Part shown: in pieces, positions 8,457 to 46,966 of the stretch | Numbering within the stretch: the first letter of the stretch is position 1 | Layout: every line of letters begins with the position of its first letter | Sequence record: PZ445422.1 | Reading direction: 5' to 3' (one strand) | Length of the DNA: 56,589 nt | DNA from: a phage | The notes under the pieces: model-generated | The model's input: the letters and a program-made list of their open reading frames with translations, nothing else | What the model was told of the DNA's origin: nothing | The model's database searches: none | Position numbers and translations under genes: made by a program

Positions 8457-8991
8457 CTTCAGTCTCTTTAACTAGTCGTTGTTGAGACTCGGATGCAGTT
8501 TTTTCCCATTCGTCAATATTTGCTACAGCAGGGACTATCATTACGCCGCCTCTGTTAGTAACATCAATCTTAGCCTTCTTGGGAGCATCCAAATCATAAA
8601 TTTGTGCAAGCTTGCCCAATGCGGCGACTCTAGCAGCTTGAGAAGATCCCGGTCCTGTATAATGAGCTTCACGTTTTAATGCTTCAATGATATGCTGACG
8701 CTCAAGGTCTGCTTCAATGTTAGCTTGCTCAGAAGTACGTTGAACACGGGATCTTTCAATCTCCTTGAGCTTCCATCGAACATAACAGTCCGTGGCAAAG
8801 CGTTGGCCAAGCTCCTGTGCAAACATAGCATTGAACCCGCATCTCATGCAAGCGTTAGTCCAATTGTAGTCGAACATGTACTCAGCAACAACTTTGTCAC
8901 GTATTGCCATCTCTTCAGCGGACAAGCTATTTGCATACTGGATGTAATTCGTCCAGTCACGATCATATTGCTCTTGACTTGCCCCGTTCAT
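8434..8991 (-). CDS. terminase small subunit candidate
   Basis: 185 aa ORF overlapping the start of the large terminase by 23 nt; position-based. Confidence 0.5.
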   Translation of the reverse strand: MNGASQEQYDRDWTNYIQYANSLSAEEMAIRDKVVAEYMFDYNWTNACMRCGFNAMFAQELGQRFATDCYVRWKLKEIERSRVQRTSEQANIEADLERQHIIEALKREAHYTGPGSSQAARVAALGKLAQIYDLDAPKKAKIDVTNRGGVMIVPAVANIDEWEKTASESQQRLVKETEDGAKPTT

Positions 8992-16506: not shown

Positions 16507-16674
16507 ATGTCCAGCTCATACTTCACTATTATGTACTTCGGTCGCAGCTATTGCATCGATAACAAATATCGCCACCTTACCCGCGCTCAGCTGGAGTGGG
16601 CCATCAGCTTATATAAGCAGGAAGAATTCTATTTCCTCGAAGCTGCACTGGATTATGTAAGCGAAAATAGTTGA
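16507..16674 (+). CDS. small hypothetical protein (55 aa)
   Basis: own translation MSSSYFTIMYFGRSYCIDNKYRHLTRAQLEWAISLYKQEEFYFLEAALDYVSENS; GGAGG RBS 7 nt upstream of ATG; first plus-strand gene. Confidence 0.4.
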   Translation: MSSSYFTIMYFGRSYCIDNKYRHLTRAQLEWAISLYKQEEFYFLEAALDYVSENS

Positions 16675-16700
16675 TTTATATCTTGCCTAGTTGATCTGAC

Positions 16701-16725
16701 TGGGCAATAATAAGTCAACTTAAAC
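16701..16725 (+). promoter_or_regulatory. conserved upstream motif TGGGCAATAATAAGTCAACT (copy 1), promoter candidate
   Basis: near-identical 20-mer also at 17021..17043; each lies about 42-44 nt before an early-gene ATG. Confidence 0.3.
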
Positions 16726-16742
16726 AAAACGAGGATTACATC

Positions 16743-16991
16743 ATGGCTACTTCTATCGTCACCAAATTTTTGGCACCAACTAACACCAAAGGCGCACGCA
16801 TTGCAGTTAAAGGTTTTGGCAAGCGCAAAGTCTATAGCTGGGACTATGCTATCGACGTAACGCTTAACCATAAAGCAGCGGTACAGCAGTTCCTCAAAGC
16901 GTTTAACGCCGAGAACGACACCGACTATGACATCGTTGCTTTCGCAAGCATGGATATCGCAACCGCCGATTTCGTAGCAATCGCGCAATAA
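16743..16991 (+). CDS. hypothetical early protein
   Basis: 82 aa; GAGGA RBS; preceded by conserved motif. Confidence 0.5.
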   Translation: MATSIVTKFLAPTNTKGARIAVKGFGKRKVYSWDYAIDVTLNHKAAVQQFLKAFNAENDTDYDIVAFASMDIATADFVAIAQ

Positions 16992-17020
16992 GTTTTCTTA
17001 TACACTGCTCATCATTACGG

Positions 17021-17043
17021 TGGGCAGTAATAAGCAAACTAAC
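17021..17043 (+). promoter_or_regulatory. conserved upstream motif TGGGCAGTAATAAGCAAACT (copy 2), promoter candidate
   Basis: matches motif at 16701..16725; upstream of ATG at 17065. Confidence 0.3.
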
Positions 17044-17064
17044 ATTAACGAAAGGAGCTATACC

Positions 17065-17679
17065 ATGTCTAAAGTAACTCACCGCGAACAGGACAAAATG
17101 CGTTACACCATGAAAACGAATGCACGCCGCGCCCTGAAAACTCGCTGGGGCCAGGTTGCACGCGACGCACACGAACAGTTAATCCATCAGGACGACATCG
17201 GTTTTTACATCGTCGAGAAGGAAGTCCTTCAGGTGCTGCGCGATCACGAAAAAGCTCAGAAGCCGGAGCAGAAAGTCCCAGCACCGACCGCCGCGCCAGC
17301 CGCCAGCGTCTCGGTACTGCGCCCGATGGTAAATCCGGAAATCGTCAAAAGCTGCCTCGAAGCTTTGGAGCAGGAGGAAGAGAAAGATATGAAACACGCA
17401 AAAGCTGCCACGCAGGTTTCTGAAATCAAAATTGAAGAGCCAAAAGCTGCCGCGCCAAAACAGGATGCAAAAGCTGCTCGCTGTGATTTCAAAAATGGCG
17501 CTCGCAAGCCGCTGAAAGGAAAAACCGCCGAAGTGTGGGCAATGGGCGACAAACTTTTATCCGAACTGGGTCGCACTCCGGAGCTGAAAGAAATGAAAGC
17601 TGCAATGCCTTCTTACAACGGGACAACAGTCGCCATTCAGTTCTACGCATGGCGCAAATACAACGGACTGGACGCATAA
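17065..17679 (+). CDS. hypothetical early protein
   Basis: ATG at 17065 with AAAGGAG RBS (internal start of track ORF 17020..17679); 204 aa, charged. Confidence 0.5.
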   Translation: MSKVTHREQDKMRYTMKTNARRALKTRWGQVARDAHEQLIHQDDIGFYIVEKEVLQVLRDHEKAQKPEQKVPAPTAAPAASVSVLRPMVNPEIVKSCLEALEQEEEKDMKHAKAATQVSEIKIEEPKAAAPKQDAKAARCDFKNGARKPLKGKTAEVWAMGDKLLSELGRTPELKEMKAAMPSYNGTTVAIQFYAWRKYNGLDA

Positions 17680-17731
17680 TCTATAACCACATCAACCGAC
17701 GGGCTTCTGCGGGAGCCCTAAGGATAAGAAG

Positions 17732-17908
17732 ATGCAATTAGATAGTTTCGCAACTCAATACTTAAAAGACCTTCAACTCCGTGTAAATGAAGCTCGCGCC
17801 AAAGAAGGCCTTAAACCTCTAAACCAGTCCCAGCTTGTTGGCGAATTAATCGAGCAAGCTGCCACTCAGTCAACATTATTCGTCGGCTCTGTGTTCGTAA
17901 GGAAATAA
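17732..17908 (+). CDS. small hypothetical protein (58 aa)
   Basis: own translation MQLDSFATQYLKDLQLRVNEARAKEGLKPLNQSQLVGELIEQAATQS...; AAGGA RBS; fills gap between flanking genes. Confidence 0.35.
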   Translation: MQLDSFATQYLKDLQLRVNEARAKEGLKPLNQSQLVGELIEQAATQSTLFVGSVFVRK

Positions 17909-17910
17909 AT

Positions 17911-18237
17911 ATGAAAAAGTTCATCCGCTCTTACACTGACATCAGAGGTCTACGTAAAGGAACGGTTTATGAAGTTGCCGACTTCGGAAATAAAATATTG
18001 GTCCCTTATTACAATAAAGACGAAAAGCCGGTTCCAATGACCAGCGTCTGCTTCACCCGCCTTATGCAGGACAAGTTCCTTGCAGAAGTGCAACCGATGC
18101 GCAAAGAAGGCACATCCGAGATCTGGTTTGTACACCGCCAGGAACCGGATAGTATTTGGTCCGAATGGGTAAGCGAAAAACTGTCGGGTATTATGTCCGA
18201 CGATACGCTAGCCCACTTCACACCTGTACAACTCTAA
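17911..18237 (+). CDS. hypothetical early protein
   Basis: 108 aa; start overlaps previous stop region; followed by hairpin ccgggccag/ctggtccgg. Confidence 0.5.
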   Translation: MKKFIRSYTDIRGLRKGTVYEVADFGNKILVPYYNKDEKPVPMTSVCFTRLMQDKFLAEVQPMRKEGTSEIWFVHRQEPDSIWSEWVSEKLSGIMSDDTLAHFTPVQL

Positions 18238-18360
18238 ACTACTTCCGGGCCAGCCCTCCTACTGGTCCGGTTAACCGCGCAATAAAGTCCTCCTCCAATA
18301 TCCCGCGATTAAGCGCATTATAGCTTGATATACCTTCCGATCACAATAGTTCAATAATTT

Positions 18361-18720
18361 ATTCCATTATTCCAATTATTCCGGAATCTGGAATAATACT
18401 GTATATCCATACACCATATTCCATTAACAATCCTGTCACGATTTGTATTCTTTCACTTTTTGTGAGTTTTGGGACTTTTTAACAATGACCCAAAAACATT
18501 CAAATAATACCAATAGGTACTATATACATTACTAATAAATCCTTATTTTATATATATTTATGGTATTACTTATTAACTTTTAGTTTCTATCCGTTTTTAG
18601 TCTGTTGACTGAAAGTTTTAGGTTTTTGCGCTCTGGAGTACCGATTCCATTATTCTATCAAGTAGGAATAATTTATTCCACTTCCATCATTTGGATTTCT
18701 ACCCATTCCATTCACTATTC
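18361..18720. repeat. AT-rich region with multiple direct and inverted TTCCATTATTCC / GGAATAAT elements
   Basis: copies near 18361, 18375-18397 (inverted pair ttattccggaat...ggaataat), 18415, 18645, 18663, 18705; no credible ORF. Confidence 0.5.
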
Positions 18721-18867
18721 ATTTAGTATCTATCTTATTGATTTATATACGTTTTTTACTAACAGTCGGGATTAGGGTATTAGGGTAAAAAATGCGTTTT
18801 ACCCCAAAACGCAAAAACTTACTGCACCAACTTATTGTTTTTATTAAAGTTTTTAGCAACAGTGGCA

Positions 18868-18965
18868 CCACAAAACTTCGCAAAACTTTGCAAAACTCAC
18901 AAAACTTTCCGTCACATTGTGCAAACTGTGGAGCACCAACTATTCCTACCCAAAACTTTCCATTA
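18868..18965. repeat. tandem 9-10 bp iterons CAAAACTT (4 contiguous copies plus one downstream)
   Basis: ccacaaaacttcgcaaaactttgcaaaactcacaaaactttcc then cccaaaactttcc; helical-phase spacing. Confidence 0.5.
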
Positions 18966-19066
18966 CATGTGGTTATATATTAACAATCCGCTCACATCAT
19001 AACTTCAGGTGGAATAATTGTGGCTGGCCTACTATGGATTGTGTATAGTGCTGTTAGGAGGTAGGT

Positions 19067-19282
19067 ATGGACTGTCAAAAAGAATTTGATCTTAAATACA
19101 TAACCACATCAGAAATTGAAAACCGCTTCGGTCTTAGTCGTCGCAAATTATGTTCGCTTCGCGGTAAGCTGCCGGGCGAAGTTAAGATTGCTAACGTGTA
19201 TGTTTATGTTCGTGCAGTTGCAGAACCTGTCTTAATGTTGCACGCTGGCCGGGTTGTGCCGGAGGTTGGTCGTGGGTCGTAA
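19067..19282 (+). CDS. hypothetical small protein (possible DNA-binding)
   Basis: 71 aa; strong AGGAGG RBS; first gene after the AT-rich region. Confidence 0.45.
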   Translation: MDCQKEFDLKYITTSEIENRFGLSRRKLCSLRGKLPGEVKIANVYVYVRAVAEPVLMLHAGRVVPEVGRGS

Positions 19283-19553
19283 GTGCAGGACTGTCCCGGG
19301 CAGTAATTTCAAAGGGCGCGGGCTCGCACGCCGGAAACCGCGAGTGCCTCGGGAAAATGTGAGCGGGCGTGAGGGCGTTACTTTCGATTATAAAACTGGT
19401 AAATGGCTTGCCCGATTAACATGGGTAGATGCAGGCGGAGAAACAAGGCGAACTTTCCTTGGACTGTATGACAGCATGAAAGACGCTTGCGAAGTATATG
19501 ACGCAAATAATTCAGCATACGAAGAATGGCGGAGGAAACAGATTTATGGCTAG
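19254..19553 (+). CDS. AP2-domain DNA-binding protein candidate
   Basis: VTFDYKTGKWLARLTWVDAGGETRRTFLGLYDSMKDACEVYD follows the AP2/ERF pattern (GKW.A.I....G..R..LG.F...E.A..AYD); start uncertain, overlaps previous gene. Confidence 0.4.
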   Translation: MCRRLVVGRKCRTVPGSNFKGRGLARRKPRVPRENVSGREGVTFDYKTGKWLARLTWVDAGGETRRTFLGLYDSMKDACEVYDANNSAYEEWRRKQIYG

Positions 19554-19815
19554 AAAAATACCATATATAGGTAAAGAGATGATTCGATTCCCTGCTCCAT
19601 GGCTGGGAGAAGGACAATTTGAGGATGTATGCGCTTATTTTGAAGAGGTGGAATTAAAAGGTGGGATTACACAATATCGCGCATTTATTAGAGTCATGGA
19701 TGAGTATCAGTATATTGGCACATATGCCACAATGGATACAGCTTTCGTCACTATCGATAAAGTCAAGGATGTAATTACATCTCTGTTAAAAGTGATTGTT
19801 AACGAAGGTAAATGA
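19546..19815 (+). CDS. hypothetical protein
   Basis: ATG at 19546 with GGAGGAAA RBS (internal start of track ORF 19498..19815). Confidence 0.45.
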   Translation: MARKIPYIGKEMIRFPAPWLGEGQFEDVCAYFEEVELKGGITQYRAFIRVMDEYQYIGTYATMDTAFVTIDKVKDVITSLLKVIVNEGK

Positions 19816-22151
19816 TGGAACTGTTTCCCGCTGAAATTAAAGCTTTCCCACAATGGGCGGTCGCCGATGCGGATAAAAAGCCGCTCGTATGGGATAACGA
19901 TATTGGACGTTTGATGGCGGCGGACGTTACCGATCCGGATATGCTTATGACGTTTGAAGCTGCCAAAGGTTGTGCTGCTCATTTCAATAAACCTTATATT
20001 GGCTTCGTGCTTACTGCGCAAGACCCGTTCACCTGTATCGACCTGGATGTGAAGAACGCAACCAATGAACCGGATCCCAAGAAGCACACAACGCCGGAAC
20101 AGTTGCGCCGCTTCGAACAGATCATGACTGCGTTCGATACTTACACCGAAGTAAGTCGCTCAGGCTTGGGCGTCCACCTGTGGTTAAGAGGGAACATCGG
20201 TAAAGGTCGCCGACGTGATGGTGTCGAGGTTTATAGTCAGGAGCGTTTTATTATCTGCACTGGTAATCCTGTCTACAACAAACCAGTTGCAGAACGTGAT
20301 CATTACCTTACTATGCTTGTGAATGAAATTGATCTTCAGCGCAAGACATATGAAATTGAACTGGTAGAAAAAGATCCGGTAGAAGATGATGCAACTATTC
20401 ATCAGCGCGCACTTGAAGCAGACAACGGCGATAAGTATGCACGCCTATTCAATGGCGAATGGGTTGAAATGGGATTCCCTTCCCAGTCTGAAGCAGACCT
20501 TGCCCTTATTTCCATGTATGCATTTTACACAGAAAGTAATGAGCAATGTCGCCGTCTGTTCCGTTACAGTGCACTGGGCAAACGTGAGAAGGCTAATAAG
20601 AACAATGTTCATATTGACCGTTGTTTGCGTATGTGTCGCGGTCGCATGGAGCGTGAACGCATTGCCCAGGAAAACGTAGCGGCGCTGGCGCGGGATTACG
20701 CTGCTCGTATGCAAGCTGCACACAGTGCAATGCAGCAGGTAACGGAAATGCCTGTAACCACAGTCAGCCCGTCCGGTGAAATAGTAGTTGCAGAAAGCAC
20801 GTCCATTGATGCAACAGCTATTGAATGGCCGCCGGGACTTGCTGGTGAGCTTGCGAAGTATATCTACAAAGCATCGCAGCGTCCGGTGAAAGAAATTGCA
20901 ATCACTGCATCGTTAGCATTCTTGTCAGGTGTATGCGGTAAGGTATGGAATACTATCACCAACACAGGGCTGAACGGTTACTTTGTGCTCATTGCCCGAT
21001 CAGGTGTGGGTAAAGAAATGCTTCACGCTGGGCCCAGCTATATTTGTAAGCAGGTAGGCGAGCAATTACCGCAAGTGCATGAATTTGTAGACATGACTAA
21101 CTATGCTTCCGGTCCTGCCTTGCGTAAAAGTTTTGCGGATCATACTTCGTTTGTGAATATTAACGGCGAGTTCGGTAAAACCATTAAAGGTATGGCAACA
21201 GCTCAACCTGGCACTGCAAACTACACCCTGAAGCAAACTATTACAGATGTGTATCAAAAATCTGGTGCGATGGATGTTGTTGGCGGTATCGGATATTCTG
21301 ATAAGGCTAATAATACCAAAACAATGGAAGGGGTAGCGTTCAGCATTTTGGGCGAAACAACACCGGACACATTCTTTGAAGCGTTAACACGTGAAATGAT
21401 GGAAGACGGTTTCTTGTCCCGTTTCCACATTGTGCAATATGAAGGGGATCGTGTTCCTGCAAACGAGAATCCTGAAATTACAATGCCGCAGCAATTAAAG
21501 GACATGGTGTGCCATCTTGTTAACCACACGTTAGTGACAATGGCGAAGTTCCAGACCGTTACCGTCCAGTTAAGCTCTGAAGCGGAAAGGATTGAACGGG
21601 AGTTTAACTTGCTGTGTGATGAACACATTAACGCAACTAAAGACGAAGCTATCCGTCAGCCGTGGAACCGTGCTCACCTTAAAGCTCTGCGTCTTGCTTC
21701 CCTGTTAGCAGTGGGGGAAAACTGGATCAATCCTGTCGTTCAGCCCAATCACATGCAATGGGCGGTAGATTTTGTTACGCATGGGCAGGACATCATGATC
21801 AACGCATGGGAAAAAGGTACTATTGGCGGTGATGATGAAACGCGTGTGAAGGCTATCTGTCAGGTCTGCAAAGATTATCTTGGCGGTAAAATTGCATGCG
21901 ATCGTAAGGAGCTGCGAGTTGACGGTATTATTCCGAAGGCAACTATCACACGCAGAACCTACGGGTTAGCAGCATTCAAGAATCACAGGATGGGAGCAGG
22001 TACTGCAACAGACCTCACTATCAAACAACTTGTAGACATGGGCGCGCTTGTTCCGGTTACGCGTGAAGATGCGTTGAAGCGTAATTTCAGGGGATTGGGA
22101 TGGTATATAGACGAGTCAATTGAGAGTGTTTTCAAGGACTTAAGCAAATAA
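19812..22151 (+). CDS. DNA primase-polymerase (Prim-Pol) with C-terminal NTPase-like region
   Basis: 779 aa; N-terminal block GFVLT..DPFTCIDLDVKN and VSRSGLGVHLWL match Prim-Pol catalytic motifs; C-terminal region with P-loop-like LIARSGVGKE. Confidence 0.65.
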   Translation: MMELFPAEIKAFPQWAVADADKKPLVWDNDIGRLMAADVTDPDMLMTFEAAKGCAAHFNKPYIGFVLTAQDPFTCIDLDVKNATNEPDPKKHTTPEQLRRFEQIMTAFDTYTEVSRSGLGVHLWLRGNIGKGRRRDGVEVYSQERFIICTGNPVYNKPVAERDHYLTMLVNEIDLQRKTYEIELVEKDPVEDDATIHQRALEADNGDKYARLFNGEWVEMGFPSQSEADLALISMYAFYTESNEQCRRLFRYSALGKREKANKNNVHIDRCLRMCRGRMERERIAQENVAALARDYAARMQAAHSAMQQVTEMPVTTVSPSGEIVVAESTSIDATAIEWPPGLAGELAKYIYKASQRPVKEIAITASLAFLSGVCGKVWNTITNTGLNGYFVLIARSGVGKEMLHAGPSYICKQVGEQLPQVHEFVDMTNYASGPALRKSFADHTSFVNINGEFGKTIKGMATAQPGTANYTLKQTITDVYQKSGAMDVVGGIGYSDKANNTKTMEGVAFSILGETTPDTFFEALTREMMEDGFLSRFHIVQYEGDRVPANENPEITMPQQLKDMVCHLVNHTLVTMAKFQTVTVQLSSEAERIEREFNLLCDEHINATKDEAIRQPWNRAHLKALRLASLLAVGENWINPVVQPNHMQWAVDFVTHGQDIMINAWEKGTIGGDDETRVKAICQVCKDYLGGKIACDRKELRVDGIIPKATITRRTYGLAAFKNHRMGAGTATDLTIKQLVDMGALVPVTREDALKRNFRGLGWYIDESIESVFKDLSK

Positions 22152-23573: not shown

Positions 23574-24040
23574 TGGCAGTAAATATTCGCGCTAAAGGTC
23601 AACGCGGTGAGCGGGAAGTATGCGATTTCTTTAATGCAATTTATGCCGAAATCTACGCAGAGCTGGGGATGCAGTTACCGGAGAAACCTATTGCTCAGCG
23701 TAACCAGAATCAAAGTGCGGTCGGTGGTTGCGACATTAGCAATACGTGCCACCATGCGGTTGAAGTAAAAAACCATGCTACGCCACAGGTGAACACATGG
23801 TGGAAACAGACTGTTCAATCCGCTAAAGAGCTTGGCAGATATCCAGTTCTGATGTATAAAATAGAACGTAAAGGATGGAAGGTTGTTCTACCGCTTAATC
23901 CAGTCGTCTTTAGCAATGGTGAGTGGCAGTGGTACGAAGTTAAAGATTCCATCCGCGCGGAGATTAGTCTTGATGACTACCGCATTATTTTTAAAGCGCA
24001 CGCGAAACAATGGTTAATTGATCGCGGTTCAATTCAATAA
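23574..24040 (+). CDS. Holliday junction resolvase, Hjc-like PD-(D/E)XK nuclease
   Basis: KGQRGEREV ... GGCDIS ... AVEVKN ... RYPVLMYK follows the Hjc pattern (KG..ERE, D, EVK, PVL); ATG at 23574 with GGAG RBS. Confidence 0.55.
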
Positions 24041-24049
24041 GGTGAAATT

Positions 24050-24643
24050 ATGACTGACGTATTAAATATCACAAAAAATTCTTTTGCAATTGATGTTGAA
24101 AAATTTGCCGCATCATTAAGCACAATTCCTGTCGGTGTGAAGCGCTTAACAGACACCGCAATTCTACCAGCGTTCGCCACTGCTGGGGCAGCTTGCTTTG
24201 ACCTGCACGCGGATCTCAAAAGTGAAGACGGTTGTGAACAAATCATTTTCTCTTACGAGCACATATTCCGCACAGGGTTAGCGTTTGATATCCCTAAAGG
24301 GTATGCGCTTATGGTCTATTCCCGTAGTGGACACGGATTCAAAAATGACGTGCGTTTGGCAAACTGCGTGGGTGTTATTGATAGCGATTACACTGGCGAA
24401 GTTAAAGTTAAGCTCACTATTGATAATGATGGTAGTTTTATAGTCAGTCATGGCGACCGTATTGCGCAAGCTATGCTTATTAAGGTGCCTTGCGTGCAAC
24501 TGGTAGAAGTAGACGAGCTCAAAACTACTGAGCGCGGTGCTAATGGCTTTGGGTCCACTGGTACATCTGCCAATGTGGTTACAGCAGAGGAAGAAGCTGC
24601 TACGCATCCGATTATGACTTCACGTCATTTAGATAAAAAATAA
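24050..24643 (+). CDS. dut: dUTP diphosphatase (dUTPase)
   Basis: motifs AGAACFDL, YSRSGHG, GVIDSDYTGE, GDRIAQ, RGANGFGSTG in canonical order. Confidence 0.85.
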   Translation: MTDVLNITKNSFAIDVEKFAASLSTIPVGVKRLTDTAILPAFATAGAACFDLHADLKSEDGCEQIIFSYEHIFRTGLAFDIPKGYALMVYSRSGHGFKNDVRLANCVGVIDSDYTGEVKVKLTIDNDGSFIVSHGDRIAQAMLIKVPCVQLVEVDELKTTERGANGFGSTGTSANVVTAEEEAATHPIMTSRHLDKK

Positions 24644-33094: not shown

Positions 33095-33898
33095 ATGAGC
33101 AACATTGAAGATAAAAAAGCCGCTGCCGCTGCTGCCGCTGCTGCCGCTGCAAAATCTGCTAAACCTGCAAAGAAAGAAGCTACTGTGAATGATGCAGAAG
33201 CTAAGAAAGCCGCTGCCGCTGAAGCTGCACGCGTAGCAAAAGAGAAAAAAGAAGCAGAGAAAAAAGCTGCCGCTGAAAAGAAACAAGCTGAAATCCGCAC
33301 TGAAGCGGAAAACAAATTTAATGCGATTGCTAACGCTGCTGAAATCCTGAAAAACTCTTTGGCTACCGTCACCGACGAAAGCACTGTTGAACAAATCACG
33401 GAAGCAGAAACTCAGGGATCTGCAAACCTGAAGACCATTAAAGAAGCTCTGAAAGAGCTGAAAGCTGTCGTTAAGAAGTCTAAAGGTGAAGACCTGTCCG
33501 GTGCTGTAACTTCTGCCCAGGGTCTGGTGGATGGTCTGGAAGCTACTATTAAAGGCTTCAAAGACAAGATCCGTGCTGCAAAACAGGCAGAAAAAGAAGC
33601 GGAAAAAGCACGCGCTAAAGAGCTCCGCGAGAAAGAAAAAGAAGCTAATCGTATGCCGGAACAGAACGGTGTTCGTCGCCCACAACCGGAAACTTCCTGC
33701 GGTCGTGCCTGGGCCCTGATGGACCAGATTAGCGCTACGCTGGGTCAGCCTGCTCCGATCTCTTATGTTCTGAACCTGGCTGGTCGCCATGGTCTGAACG
33801 AAGATACCGTTAAAACCCAATATGCACGCTGGAAGAAATTTAATGGTGTAACTGGTCGCGTACCTGTGCCAGTACCGGAAGCTTTGAACGGCTTGTAA
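33095..33898 (+). CDS. Ala/Lys-rich histone H1-like protein with distinct C-terminal domain
   Basis: ATG at 33095 with GGAGTGAAGAGA RBS; N-terminal two-thirds is KAAAAAAAAAAAK / AEKKAAAEKK low complexity; C-terminal 80 aa globular. Confidence 0.5.
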   Translation: MSNIEDKKAAAAAAAAAAAKSAKPAKKEATVNDAEAKKAAAAEAARVAKEKKEAEKKAAAEKKQAEIRTEAENKFNAIANAAEILKNSLATVTDESTVEQITEAETQGSANLKTIKEALKELKAVVKKSKGEDLSGAVTSAQGLVDGLEATIKGFKDKIRAAKQAEKEAEKARAKELREKEKEANRMPEQNGVRRPQPETSCGRAWALMDQISATLGQPAPISYVLNLAGRHGLNEDTVKTQYARWKKFNGVTGRVPVPVPEALNGL

Positions 33899-35897: not shown

Positions 35898-36377
35898 ATG
35901 AAATTTATCGTTGCTTATCTGGCTGCAATTACATTCGTAAACCTGGGCTTTTCCTACCTTCCAATACTTAACACGCCGCTTGGCGTAGTCCCGATGATGG
36001 CTTTCTTTGTAGGTATTATCTTTGTGTTGCGCGACTACGCACAGCGTAACGCTGGCAAAGGCGTCATCCCTGCAATGATTATCGGTTGTATTCTTAGCTG
36101 GGTATTCGGGGATCCTGCGGTTGTAGTTGCATCAGTTGCATCCTTTGCACTTAGCGAGTTTGCGGACTATGCGGTATACACGATTACTAAGAAGCCTTTC
36201 CATCAACGAGTATTTATCAGCTCTTTGGTAGCTGTACCGATTGACTCCATTGTGTTCTTAAGTATTATAGGTATTGTTAATCCGGGATCAATGGTAGCAA
36301 TGAGCTTAAGTAAGTTCACAGCATCCGCTATCCTTTGGATTGTTTACGAAGTTCAATCACGTACAGCGAGAGCGTAA
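35898..36377 (+). CDS. integral membrane protein, possible queuosine-precursor transporter (YhhQ/DUF165-like)
   Basis: ATG at 35898 with GGAG RBS; about 5 TM segments; assignment rests mainly on location inside the deazaguanine cluster. Confidence 0.35.
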   Translation: MKFIVAYLAAITFVNLGFSYLPILNTPLGVVPMMAFFVGIIFVLRDYAQRNAGKGVIPAMIIGCILSWVFGDPAVVVASVASFALSEFADYAVYTITKKPFHQRVFISSLVAVPIDSIVFLSIIGIVNPGSMVAMSLSKFTASAILWIVYEVQSRTARA

Positions 36378-36378
36378 A

Positions 36379-36969
36379 ATGAAAGATAATCTTAATAAAA
36401 TTTGGCACCAGCACGATGGGAAAGGAATGCCAATCTTTCTTCGCAATGAAAAGTTTGAAGTTCGTTTGCGCAACGGCACACACGTTAAGAATCTATTACA
36501 TGGATGGGATTGGGCTATAGAAGGGCGTTCAGCTATGGATGAAAATAGCCCTTATAAAGTTCAAGATATTATAGCCTGGCGATATATCGTTGCGGATGAT
36601 TACGTCAAACAAGCCAGCGAAAACACTCGCTCCGGAGTGTACCATCAACCTTCTTCTGGAATAAGCATAAGTAATACATTTAATGGTGCAGTTTTTACCA
36701 AATATGAACCATCTAAAATTCCCATGAATAAATATCAGAAAATTATTTATGGTAAAGATCAAAACGGCAATGTTGTAAAATGCATCGTGGACGTGTATGA
36801 TGTCTTGGAAGCTTGGAAAACAACTAACCCAGCTTTACAACATTTGATTAAAAAGGCGTTGCAGCCGGGCGAACGTGGTCATAAAAGTCTGGTAGAAGAT
36901 TTGAAAGACATTATTGCATCCGCACAGCGTGCATTAGAAATTGAACAGTCTAAAGAGGTATTAAAATGA
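36379..36969 (+). CDS. hypothetical protein embedded in deazaguanine cluster
   Basis: 196 aa; ATG at 36379 right after previous stop; stop overlaps queD start; no recognisable motif. Confidence 0.5.
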   Translation: MKDNLNKIWHQHDGKGMPIFLRNEKFEVRLRNGTHVKNLLHGWDWAIEGRSAMDENSPYKVQDIIAWRYIVADDYVKQASENTRSGVYHQPSSGISISNTFNGAVFTKYEPSKIPMNKYQKIIYGKDQNGNVVKCIVDVYDVLEAWKTTNPALQHLIKKALQPGERGHKSLVEDLKDIIASAQRALEIEQSKEVLK

Positions 36970-39322: not shown

Positions 39323-39549
39323 TGGCTAACTTAAGAAGACCAAAAGGTAAACGTAAATATACTCACACAGGCGTAAGAATTAATTATTACAGTGAAAACA
39401 GAGTAGTATTTCTCCACAAGACACCTAAGCAGTGGCAGGATCCGTCAGGCACATGGTTTAATGCGCAAGGAAAACAAATGGGACTTTATGGATTACCTCC
39501 AACATGTGAATTAGACTTAACCACAATTAGAGCAATCGAGGATCGCTAA
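39322..39549 (+). CDS. hypothetical small protein
   Basis: 75 aa; ATG overlaps dpdA stop. Confidence 0.45.
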   Translation: MANLRRPKGKRKYTHTGVRINYYSENRVVFLHKTPKQWQDPSGTWFNAQGKQMGLYGLPPTCELDLTTIRAIEDR

Positions 39550-39785
39550 TGACACCAGTGTGTGAAGAATATATTACTTCCCAATCTAAAGCTGGGGGTA
39601 AAGCGGTAGGTCGTGTTGCCATCGCTAAGTTAACAAACGCGGGCTATGTACCAAAAGTTACCCCACCACCCCCTGAGCCCTGGATATGGGAGAAAAACGA
39701 GGGTCGTATTATGGCCATTACATCGTATATGGGACCTTTTAGATTAAAGATTGAGTATCTTGTAGACTTAGATGGGGACTCCTAA
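39549..39785 (+). CDS. hypothetical small protein
   Basis: 78 aa; TAATG stop-start overlap on both sides. Confidence 0.45.
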   Translation: MTPVCEEYITSQSKAGGKAVGRVAIAKLTNAGYVPKVTPPPPEPWIWEKNEGRIMAITSYMGPFRLKIEYLVDLDGDS

Positions 39786-40738
39786 TGCTTGACGCTCTTA
39801 AATTTGTTCAAGGCTCTGTTGCTAAAAAGGAACTGGTAGAAGGGCTTACTAGCTTTCTTATTCGTGACGGGCAGGTACAAGGCTTTAACGGTGTTATTGC
39901 ACTGGGTAGTCCTATTGAGCTGGATATTGATTGCAAGCCCGAAGCTGGGCCTATGATTAAAGCTATCTCAAACTGTGACGAAACCGTACAGTTAACAATG
40001 ATGGCTAACGGTAAACTTAATATCAAGTCCGGACCGTTTCGTGTTGCTATACGCTGCATTGATAAAGAAACGCTGCACGTATTCCCTGAAGGCGATTTGT
40101 ACGAAATAGATGGTGCTCGCTTCGTTCATGGTGTGAAGTCCGTTGCTCCGTTTGTAGGCTCGGATGCGTCCCGTCCGTGGGCTTGCGGGATCCTGATTAA
40201 TAACGGTAGTCTATTTGCTACAAATAACGTCACCATTGCGGAATACTGGTTTGGTAATCAGTTTCCTATTGATTGCATAATACCTTCCGTTGCAATTAAA
40301 GAAATACTGCGTATTAAAGCTAACCCGACGCATATTCAGGTTAGCAAGAACAATGTCACGTTTCATTATCCGGAAGGTCGCTGGTTGCGCACACAGCTTA
40401 TTGATGCGGAGTGGCCCGATATACGTCGTATTTTAAATGTTCAATGCAATGCGCATCCTGTTGATCCAGGTCTTTTTGAAGGCTTGCATAAAATTAAACC
40501 GTTCGCAGAAGACCGACCGCGTGTATATATTGAAAACGGTCTGGCGCGTACCCATTACGACGATGCAGAAGGTGCAAGCTTCGTATTACAAGACCGAACA
40601 ATAACGGGAGTGTACAATATTGATATCCTGCTATTGCTTGAAAATGTGGTTAAGACTGCGGACTTTAGTTTGTATCCGCAACCTTGCGCATTCTTTGGGG
40701 AAAATCTTCGCGGTGTATTAATTGGAGAACGTGTCTAA
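39785..40738 (+). CDS. DNA polymerase sliding clamp (DnaN-like)
   Basis: 317 aa; HYPEGRWLRTQLIDAEWPDIRRIL parallels the DnaN domain II-III junction (..FTSKLVDGRFPDYRRVL); directly upstream of polymerase. Confidence 0.5.
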   Translation: MLDALKFVQGSVAKKELVEGLTSFLIRDGQVQGFNGVIALGSPIELDIDCKPEAGPMIKAISNCDETVQLTMMANGKLNIKSGPFRVAIRCIDKETLHVFPEGDLYEIDGARFVHGVKSVAPFVGSDASRPWACGILINNGSLFATNNVTIAEYWFGNQFPIDCIIPSVAIKEILRIKANPTHIQVSKNNVTFHYPEGRWLRTQLIDAEWPDIRRILNVQCNAHPVDPGLFEGLHKIKPFAEDRPRVYIENGLARTHYDDAEGASFVLQDRTITGVYNIDILLLLENVVKTADFSLYPQPCAFFGENLRGVLIGERV

Positions 40739-43647: not shown

Positions 43648-43833
43648 ATGGCTAGAGCAGCAAAAGGTTACAGACAGACTTTTAAGCTAATTGGTGGACC
43701 GTGGGATGGGCAAAAAGTACAACTATATAGCGCGGGAACTTTAGAATTTTCCGTTAAAAGTTTTGATCCACGCCCTGGGCGTTATGTACCATCAAGCTAT
43801 CGTAATACTTTAGAATGGGAGTTTACTAAATGA
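43648..43833 (+). CDS. hypothetical small protein
   Basis: ATG at 43648 with AAGGAG RBS. Confidence 0.45.
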   Translation: MARAAKGYRQTFKLIGGPWDGQKVQLYSAGTLEFSVKSFDPRPGRYVPSSYRNTLEWEFTK

Positions 43834-44036
43834 ATGAATATGTAGTTATTTATTTCATTATTGGTGCTGTGATTGCAACAATGACTTATTTCTTTTGTTG
43901 GAATAACTATGATTATGCACTAGCCTATAAGAAACGTTGGGAGAAGATTGTAAGTCTTCTATGTATACTCGCTTGCTGGCCAGTCACTATTATTGCGACT
44001 ACTTATGATCAATACATGTACAGGAGAAGACGTTGA
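43830..44036 (+). CDS. small membrane protein
   Basis: 68 aa, two hydrophobic segments. Confidence 0.45.
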   Translation: MNEYVVIYFIIGAVIATMTYFFCWNNYDYALAYKKRWEKIVSLLCILACWPVTIIATTYDQYMYRRRR

Positions 44037-44314
44037 TGGAATACTTGCTAGTAATTGTTGCGCTGTTTCTTATTATTGTGGTTATAATGACTGGAGACAG
44101 TAACGAGAAAGGTTTCACAGCAATGAGCAGGGCGTTATTACGCGCCCTTGCTGTTGCACTGCTTGGGACAAGTTTTGCTATGGCGTTTGGGATTGTGGAG
44201 ATCCCTAGCACCTATTACGGTTTTGTTAAAGTTCAACACCAACTTACTTATGCTACCGTCGTCGGATTGGGTGCTGTAACACTTGCAATCCTGTCAGCTT
44301 TTCATAAGCGTTAA
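44033..44314 (+). CDS. small membrane protein
   Basis: 93 aa, three hydrophobic segments; last plus-strand gene. Confidence 0.45.
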   Translation: MMEYLLVIVALFLIIVVIMTGDSNEKGFTAMSRALLRALAVALLGTSFAMAFGIVEIPSTYYGFVKVQHQLTYATVVGLGAVTLAILSAFHKR

Positions 44315-44315
44315 A

Positions 44316-44340
44316 GAAAGGGGCGTTTGCCCCTTTTCTC
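44316..44340. terminator. bidirectional intrinsic terminator between convergent modules
   Basis: aaggggc-gttt-gcccctt stem with A tract before and T tract after. Confidence 0.6.
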
Positions 44341-44343
44341 TTC

Positions 44344-44547
44344 TTAGAATATACGAAAGAAAGCACCGTATGGGTATACGCCAAAAGTATTGAAAACAGA
44401 CGGTGCAAAAGCATTTACAAACACAGGAGTTGGCGCTACTGGTTGAAAAGTTTTGCAATTGCACGCTGCTTGAGCCAATTGCCCCTGAAGTATACCTGCT
44501 TGTGTTGCAGGACTGCCTAGACAGCAACGGTTAGTATTACCACACAT
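44344..44547 (-). CDS. small Cys-rich hypothetical protein
   Basis: 67 aa; AAGGAGG RBS before ATG at 44547. Confidence 0.45.
   Translation of the reverse strand: MCGNTNRCCLGSPATQAGILQGQLAQAACNCKTFQPVAPTPVFVNAFAPSVFNTFGVYPYGAFFRIF

Positions 44548-45792: not shown

Positions 45793-46966
<1,174 letters not shown>

Follow-up and report, generated by a model that had tools for sequence, protein, structure and literature searches.

In the iteron plasmids (pPS10, RK2, F and R6K), as in the replication origin (ori) of phage lambda with its initiator O, phased direct repeats lie beside an AT-rich unwinding element, and the initiator regulates its own expression via inverted repeats at its promoter. 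These initiators are not themselves helicases; they recruit the host DnaB, often with DnaA boxes present. The lambda ori lies inside the O gene, and different initiator alleles of lambdoid phages go with different iteron sequences. The α protein of P4 combines a primase, a helicase and a C-terminal winged-helix origin-binding domain in one polypeptide of 777 amino acids, which reads octamer iterons in ori; its primase is Toprim/DnaG-like, its helicase belongs to superfamily 3 (SF3), and P4 needs a second iteron site, crr, located 4.5 kb away. The origins of staphylococcal pathogenicity islands (SaPIs) contain 6–12 copies of a 5–6 nt iteron around an AT-rich centre, with at least two iterons on each side in opposite directions, and their initiator is a self-loading helicase that reads the iterons by a C-terminal winged helix, so that iteron and initiator form matched pairs (PMC9371898). 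Here, we describe an 829 bp gene-free gap at positions 18238–19066 of a 56,589 bp stretch of DNA (the window) from Escherichia phage GottfriedDienst (Bas21; Queuovirinae, Seuratvirus) and suggest, from its sequence and that of its relatives, that the gap is probably both the origin of replication of the phage and the promoter/operator of its replication operon.

Positions 17900–19700 gave a 100% megablast match to GottfriedDienst (MZ501071.1), and the window is the complete 56,589 bp record, reverse-complemented and rotated, such that window position w corresponds to record position 65581-w. The ends of the record, which starts with the terminase small-subunit gene, join between window positions 8991 and 8992, and this junction is an artefact of the layout. 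According to the MZ501071.1 annotation, the gap is located between two plus-strand genes, bas21_0071 (17911–18237) and bas21_0070 (19067–19282), directly 5′ of a 25-kb plus-strand block that encodes a primase-helicase, a ligase, an exonuclease, a superfamily 2 (SF2) helicase, the 7-deazaguanine pathway and a DNA polymerase. An earlier, sequence-only reading had described the gap as AT-rich DNA with no credible open reading frame (ORF), located upstream of small DNA-binding-type genes and the primase, and had proposed it as a replication origin. The description holds: the gap is 65% AT compared with 55% for the genome, it lies between annotated genes with no inner ORF kept in frame, and it is followed by genes for a MerR/Xis-type protein, an AP2-like protein and the primase-helicase (19812–22151). 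The case for the proposal comes from the repeats and their enrichment, the unstable core that they surround, the co-variation of each repeat family with one neighboring protein allele, and the predicted DNA-binding folds of those proteins.

The first repeat family (system 1) is the hexamer CAAAAC/GTTTTG, which is often extended to CAAAACTT. There are seven exact copies of CAAAAC in the 829 bp, the sole such cluster in the genome. Four of the 12 exact genomic copies of CAAAACTT are located in the gap (P = 2e-5), as are 10 of the 83 copies with at most one mismatch, and none of 500 dinucleotide shuffles of the gap reached the observed CAAAACTT count. To the right, a plus-strand array (18871–18958) comprises four tandem CAAAACTT units starting at 18871, 18881, 18891 (as CAAAACTC) and 18900, together with a fifth copy at 18951; their spacing of 10, 10 and 9 bp agrees with the 9–10 bp phase that had been read from the sequence alone. 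The array is kept in Salmonella phage STP-SP5, the overall identity of which is 72% here. Degenerate or inverted copies occur at 18464, 18613, 18813 and 18847. The left cluster (18456–18497), defined from the sequence and from an alignment of nine phages (A1), consists of CTTTTTG, GTTTTG and CTTTTT at 9–10 bp spacing plus an inverted CCAAAAAC, and a middle pair, GTTTTA and GTTTTTG, is found on the minus strand at 18614–18627. Finally, an inverted pair, GCGTTTTA and CAAAACGC, followed by GCAAAAACTT, is situated at 18794–18820, where our scan also reported a minus-strand terminator-like hairpin. The right array is oriented opposite to the left and middle clusters: copies in the GTTTTG sense occupy 18456–18480 and 18614–18627, those in the CAAAAC sense occupy 18805–18958, and unstable DNA lies between the clusters.

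That unstable DNA is an AT-rich core (18498–18605; 79% AT), which we consider a candidate DNA-unwinding element. The two most AT-rich 200-bp intervals of the genome are inside the gap, and nearest-neighbor calculations place the least stable duplex of the genome there at lengths of 60, 100 and 150 bp. The 100-bp minimum, at 18491–18590, has a free energy (dG) of −1.03 compared with a genome mean of −1.36, or ~4.5 standard deviations below the mean. Within the core, the segment 18500–18562 is almost invariant in all Seuratvirus loci.

A further argument comes from the comparison with related phages. We collected the homologous locus from 15 Seuratvirus genomes or contigs and later from four more metagenome contigs; a search of IMG/VR for further relatives gave only four loci. 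Every collected locus has a gene-free gap of 630–860 bp at the same place. Its left half (to position 18628) is conserved throughout the genus; the right half, beyond a recombination breakpoint just past the middle iterons, and the first genes after it are non-homologous cassettes, which we refer to as types A (as in GottfriedDienst), B and C, the last divided into C1 and C2. The primase gene is itself a sharp mosaic. Its first 900 nt and the DNA past its stop codon are 92–99% identical in all Seuratviruses (≥95% right after the gene), and between them lies an allelic block, from nt 20712 to ~22170 (codons ~300–779), that is 50–80% identical between two alleles, Y1 and Y2, with protein identity falling to 38–54% over the last 130 residues. 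When counted directly in the 15 loci, CAAAAC accompanies Y1 in eight and ATAAAC accompanies Y2 in seven, with no exception. CAjan fits the pattern (Y2-like primase N-terminus and, by eye, ATAAAC-type repeats), as do the four metagenome contigs (Y1, counted), and over the whole comparison of ~35 related phages, iteron type and primase C-terminal allele co-vary without exception. The Y1 block of GottfriedDienst (20712–22151, plus strand) matches the CAAAAC type in every phage examined, and exactly 18 database records contain the Y1 C-terminal block, a set identical to the 18 in which an iteron-bearing left half can be aligned with the locus described here.

The change from CAAAAC to ATAAAC (GTTTTG to GTTTAT) has occurred site by site, at ≥6 separate sites inside otherwise conserved sequence in alignment A1. 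Three tandem sites and one inverted site are in the left cluster and two are beside the TTGACTGAAAG breakpoint, where the middle iterons read GTTTAT GTTTAT in Y2 phages; the AT core between these sites hardly varies. The right halves of A and C1, and likewise those of B and C2, are non-homologous, yet each has the iteron type that goes with its own primase, and the homologous but diverged right halves of C1 and C2 differ at a common site (CAAAACTTT vs. ATAAACTTT).

These patterns bear on the idea that the gap is a recombination junction or mobile-cassette scar, a hotspot for homing endonucleases and cassettes in which the repeats are leftovers, or resemble endonuclease targets, and the match of iteron and primase simply reflects linkage. 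The gap is indeed strongly mosaic, with sharp breakpoints at ~18355, ~18440 and ~18628, and HNH/AP2 genes or their remnants adjoin it in several phages. Two copies of ATTAGGGT at 18771–18787, which resemble the TAGGGTAT repeats of the Seurat/CAjan-type cassette, look like a type-B repeat relic and may be left over from a cassette exchange. However, a scar would not account for the same dinucleotide change at ≥6 separate sites, for the matching iteron in non-homologous right halves, or for motif positions that, at an overall identity of 72%, are more highly conserved than the sequence around them (system-1 positions are 79% identical to STP-SP5 and those of the second family, described below, 90%, against 65.5% in the remainder; Fisher P = 0.01 and 4e-6, respectively). 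Moreover, other alleles of the genome reassort freely and the iteron–primase pair never does, even though the allelic block is ~2.1 kb from the left iterons with a freely exchanged cassette in between. A four-genome scan for other segments that split in the same way gave 23880–24320, 33250–33560, 36350–36800 and 39450–39900, and all four were rejected as discordant with iteron type once further phages were added. Since these biallelic loci are discordant and the block is confined to the primase, linkage alone is a poor explanation, and we regard a scar as improbable. The four segments, each of which reassorts independently among Seuratviruses, correspond to the RusA/dUTPase junction, an uncharacterized protein of 270 amino acids, a gene flanked by queD and yhhQ, and small genes next to the clamp gene, respectively.

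The protein whose allele follows the iterons, bas21_0067 (19812–22151, plus strand), comprises an archaeo-eukaryotic primase (AEP)-type primase-polymerase, an NrS-1-type helix-bundle domain, a DUF3987 ATPase and a predicted C-terminal winged helix. Pfam matches cover the NrS-1 polymerase helix-bundle domain and DUF3987, and there is a PHROG match in addition. In sequence, the N-terminus matches the NrS-1 primase-polymerase and PriRep5 of SaPI5 (7ola, E = 8e-11), in which a primase is likewise fused to the initiator (797 amino acids, compared with 779 here). An AlphaFold2 (AF2) model of residues 470–779, based on a 55-sequence alignment, has a mean predicted local distance difference test (pLDDT) score of 85, with >90 in the C-terminal part, and ends in a β-α-α-α-β-β unit: a winged helix placed after the ATPase lid, as in MCM/ORC proteins and SaPI Reps. 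Given that allele divergence peaks in this modeled winged helix (21834–22148; residues ~675–779), the part that differs most between the alleles is the predicted DNA-reading domain, and hence a candidate reader of the iterons.

When set beside a SaPI origin, the locus shares short repeats, present in at least six copies at a single non-coding site; an easily melted AT-rich segment flanked by oppositely oriented iterons (with a split that is not perfectly clean here); an ATPase/helicase with a C-terminal winged helix, as predicted here; and matched iteron/initiator pairs, recognized here by comparative genomics only. It differs in that the SaPI ori is located immediately downstream of rep, whereas the gap heads the operon 750 bp upstream of the primase gene, with three small genes between them; the distance is 1.1–1.5 kb in B- and C-type phages and ~5 kb in Pantoea phage Vid5. 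In addition, the helicase part here is a DUF3987 ATPase, the kinship of which to the MCM-like SaPI Reps is weakly supported, a second protein–repeat pair is interleaved with the iterons, and the element is carried by a virulent 57-kb siphovirus with modified DNA rather than a satellite.

P4 is the classical analogue with respect to the joining of primase, helicase and winged-helix DNA-binding domain in one polypeptide, but the domains themselves (AEP primase-polymerase and DUF3987) are different and the GottfriedDienst genome has no second iteron cluster. We considered as a crr-like candidate the three exact CAAAACTT copies near 43.8–44.5 kb and rejected it, as several other intervals of the genome hold as many; these copies, on the minus strand at 43758–44455 and all inside genes, are close to the point at which transcription converges and GC skew is maximal. 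The direct repeats, in helical phase and adjacent to a candidate AT-rich unwinding element, recall the iteron plasmids and lambda. The gap contains no DnaA box (TTWTNCACA; four matches in the genome compared with 7.3 expected, none in the gap), which does not fit a DnaA-dependent, oriC-like origin. Nor is it of the lambda type, with iterons inside the coding sequence of the initiator, as all of the iterons lie in non-coding DNA outside every gene.

We infer which protein binds which repeat, that the core melts, that helicase is loaded and that replication starts at the gap. The primase-helicase would be expressed from a promoter at ~18991–19018, and its C-terminal winged helix would recognize CAAAAC/GTTTTG on the left (18456–18497 and 18614–18627) and on the right (18794–18958), mainly in opposite orientations, around the AT-rich DNA. 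Hexamers could then assemble on both sides and melt the unstable core at 18498–18605, whereupon the protein would load itself as helicase and prime with its own primase-polymerase domain, such that host DnaA would not be needed. The product of the first gene after the gap might act in addition, by binding the second family of repeats either as operators or as an accessory origin factor.

This second family (system 2) is GGAATAA/TTATTCC. Five of the 10 exact genomic copies of GGAATAAT are in the gap, where ~0.15 would be expected if they were evenly spread (binomial P = 2e-7), and none of 500 dinucleotide shuffles of the gap reached five. A cluster at 18358–18397 has three tandem copies of TTATTCC (18359–18382, with a 9-bp period) facing an inverted GGAATAAT at 18390; it is conserved in STP-SP5 and kept in Dru_SM1, but is replaced by unrelated sequence in the B- and C-type phages. 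A second group (18644–18714) contains ATTCCATTATTCT, a perfect 15-bp palindrome, GGAATAA-T-TTATTCC (18665–18679), and ATTCCATTC, with ATTCCATTATTC at 18644, and another system-2 copy lies at 19011. The palindrome is kept in STP-SP5 and in locus L006 with its central base alone changed. Repeats in both orientations at 18361–18720 had been noted before, and we confirmed tandem, inverted and palindromic copies. In the type-B phages (Seurat, CAjan, slur01 and SLUR76) the place of GGAATAA is taken by TAGGGT, accompanied by the palindrome TATAGGGT-T-ACCCTATA around a single central base, and the C-type phages have CACTAT, including inverted pairs.

In types A, B and C, the type of repeat follows the allele of a small gene, g67/g71, the predicted recognition helix of which reads SRRKLCSLR in A, SRYKLCRNR in B and SKFK(L/M)SR(M/I)R in C1/C2. 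In GottfriedDienst this gene is g71 (bas21_0070; 19067–19282, plus strand), which encodes a 71-amino acid protein modeled as a MerR/excisionase-type winged helix-turn-helix (pLDDT 83.5, from a shallow alignment, as the homologue search gave five close relatives) and is therefore the candidate system-2 binder. It is followed by g93, encoding a 93-amino acid protein with an AP2-like DNA-binding domain, and g89 (together 19272–19815, plus strand), both specific to the A-type cassette. We do not favor g93 as the GGAATAAT binder, since STP-SP5 has the repeats and no AP2 gene. The g93 product (19272–19553) is a lone AP2-like domain that matches HNH-endonuclease PHROGs, and in Dru_SM1, g67 and the primase are separated by the insertion of a full HNH_3+AP2 gene (L015:6280–6804), which suggests homing-endonuclease traffic at the g93 spot.

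System 2 moves together with the cassette of the small MerR/Xis-like gene, and the −10 element of the candidate operon promoter is overlapped by one of its copies; for these reasons it looks more like a set of operators, or the target of an accessory origin factor, than like origin iterons. The proposal of an origin in the sequence-only reading is partly supported: it gains real, albeit computational, support from the CAAAAC iterons, which follow the C-terminal allele of the primase-helicase, flank the least stable DNA and match a known layout. It had lumped together two repeat families, the second of which behaves differently and is more likely an operator set. Its caveat that the repeats might be promoter arrays only is partly true for the GGAATAAT family, but not for the CAAAAC family.

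The candidate promoter of the replication operon, CTCACA-N16-AATAAT (18991–19018, plus strand), was found in a consensus scan and is conserved in STP-SP5. It lies 50 bp before g71 and has a TG before its −10 (TGGAATAAT), which is itself a system-2 repeat. We read the sequences of SA126VB, Seurat and KurtStettler directly, and in each of them a sigma70-like promoter at the same place is overlapped by the cassette's own repeats; the SA126VB record annotates a promoter at that spot. The same scan predicts a leftward sigma70-like promoter, TTGTGA-N18-TATAAT (18317–18346, minus strand; 10/12 matches), the columns of which are nearly all invariant in alignment A1 though its flanks differ. Transcription from it in GottfriedDienst would run antisense into bas21_0071. 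To the left of it, STP-SP5, Dru_SM1 and SLUR76 have a minus-strand gene, which is annotated as an HNH endonuclease in SLUR76 alone.

It is conceivable, though we think it rather unlikely, that the gap is a transcriptional control region and nothing else, holding the early/middle promoters of the 25-kb replication/modification operon and a divergent leftward promoter, with the repeats serving as operators for g71 and for autoregulation of the primase-helicase, and with replication starting elsewhere. Such a region would be expected to head a long plus-strand operon, as this one does, and to contain sigma70-like promoters, one of which has a GGAATAAT repeat as its −10; the overlap of cassette-specific repeats with the promoter in three further phages, the MerR/Xis fold of g71, which is typical of regulators, and the geometry of the palindromic half-sites, which suits dimeric repressors, all agree with it. 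Nevertheless, promoter-like matches in the scan are at chance level (four found compared with 4.0 expected), the autoregulation of an initiator normally coexists with origin function, and regulation alone leaves unexplained why ≥10 oppositely oriented hexamers, grouped around the least stable DNA of the genome, vary in step with the helicase/winged-helix part of the primase-helicase. GC skew was proposed as a check in the sequence-only reading and does not decide the matter. Its cumulative minimum is at 19006, at the gap, but its maximum, at 44455, coincides with the point of convergent transcription, so that the skew is consistent with an origin and no more, and gene orientation would explain it. 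One point in the skew data does favor an origin, namely that the plus-strand genes at 16507–18237 still have negative skew.

A packaging (cos/pac) site or a non-coding RNA is, in our view, a very improbable explanation. Repeats and inverted repeats in AT-rich DNA do occur at cos/pac sites, and the AT core has a modest hairpin potential (z −2.2). However, the terminase genes lie at a distance of ~10 kb, and the first gene of the deposited genome is that for the terminase small subunit. Searches of the whole window with Rfam (at gathering thresholds) and a tRNA scan gave no match. RNA folding of the gap gave modest z-scores only, and in Y2 phages the hairpin of the AT core is disrupted with no compensating change; hence, we rejected a structured RNA or cruciform. 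Small ORFs in the gap (30–63 amino acids) are likewise not conserved in frame in STP-SP5, where tblastn matches are fragmentary and jump between frames in a region that is 72% identical, and we rejected hidden small genes on these grounds. A hairpin with a 9-bp stem is found at 18245–18270 (plus strand; RNA fold −16.8 kcal/mol, z −2.45), just 3′ of bas21_0071. It is terminator-like but lacks a U-tract, is kept in most Seuratvirus loci, and its homologue is annotated as a terminator in SA126VB.

Several points weigh against our suggestion that the gap is the replication origin. In the searchable literature we found no experimental evidence of initiation here or in any relative, and nothing on Queuovirinae origins. 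The iterons could be autoregulatory operators of the primase-helicase instead, and in C1 phages some of them are located in the 5′ leader. The contrast between Y1 and Y2 may reflect two or three independent evolutionary events, in which case a count such as “33 of 33” overstates the statistics. The split in iteron orientation is unclean, as the left cluster holds one inverted copy and the middle cluster is to the right of the AT core. With regard to the protein, Foldseek matches of the helicase part are weak (E ~0.02), all of them being MCM, ORC or Cdc6, and the sequence match to PriRep5 is confined to the primase domain. The GC-skew curve is confounded: most of it would be predicted from gene orientation alone, and its maximum falls exactly where transcription converges. 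As for system 2, binding of GGAATAA by g71 is something we purely infer, and the left GGAATAAT cluster also occurs in Dru_SM1, whose g67 is of the C1 rather than the A type, so that cluster and g71 are not strictly coupled.

In three more distant relatives whose primase is homologous, the replication operon is likewise headed by a gap containing repeats, which differ from phage to phage. Vid5 fits the pattern: its primase is 53% identical, with a helicase part nearer to Y2, and the intergenic region heading its replication operon has tandem GTTTATAGGG (two copies; L020:494–833) plus an inverted CCTATAAAC. The gap of JenK1 (Nonagvirus; L021:1132–1974) has two copies of TCACCGAAAA, and that of Pseudomonas phage JG054 (L025:3571–3969) has TTAACAC in both orientations beside an AT patch. 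A small gene lies directly 5′ of the primase gene in all three phages, and in Vid5 and JG054 it is a g67 homologue. Elsewhere in the GottfriedDienst genome, the lateral tail fiber gene at ~46373–46954 (record positions 18627–19208) measures 582 nt compared with 3387 nt in WildeMaa, and appears truncated or replaced.

Seuratviruses are common phages of E. coli, represented in the BASEL collection and characterized by 7-deazaguanine-modified DNA, and we found no origin described for them or for other Queuovirinae in the searchable literature. The origin proposed here is of a known kind, combining iterons and an unwinding element with a matched initiator, but would be the first described for its phage group; the second protein–repeat layer is unusual. 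If our reading is correct, it would locate the start of replication in these phages and make it DnaA-independent, driven by a self-loading primase-helicase of the NrS-1/PriRep kind. The two iteron types and their initiator alleles would be a natural pair that could be swapped to map how the winged helix reads the hexamer, and their matching would explain a constraint on the otherwise free mosaic recombination of Seuratvirus genomes. In practical terms, it would show which DNA must stay together when BASEL phages are engineered. More tentatively, the 830 bp may hold two independently exchangeable layers of specificity, one formed by the primase-helicase winged helix with CAAAAC or ATAAAC and the other by the MerR/Xis-like protein with GGAATAA, TAGGGT or CACTAT, which together would define “replication-specificity groups”. 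If such groups exist among co-circulating Seuratviruses, they would restrict the range of viable recombinants and might determine whether the replication machinery of one phage can serve another that infects the same cell.

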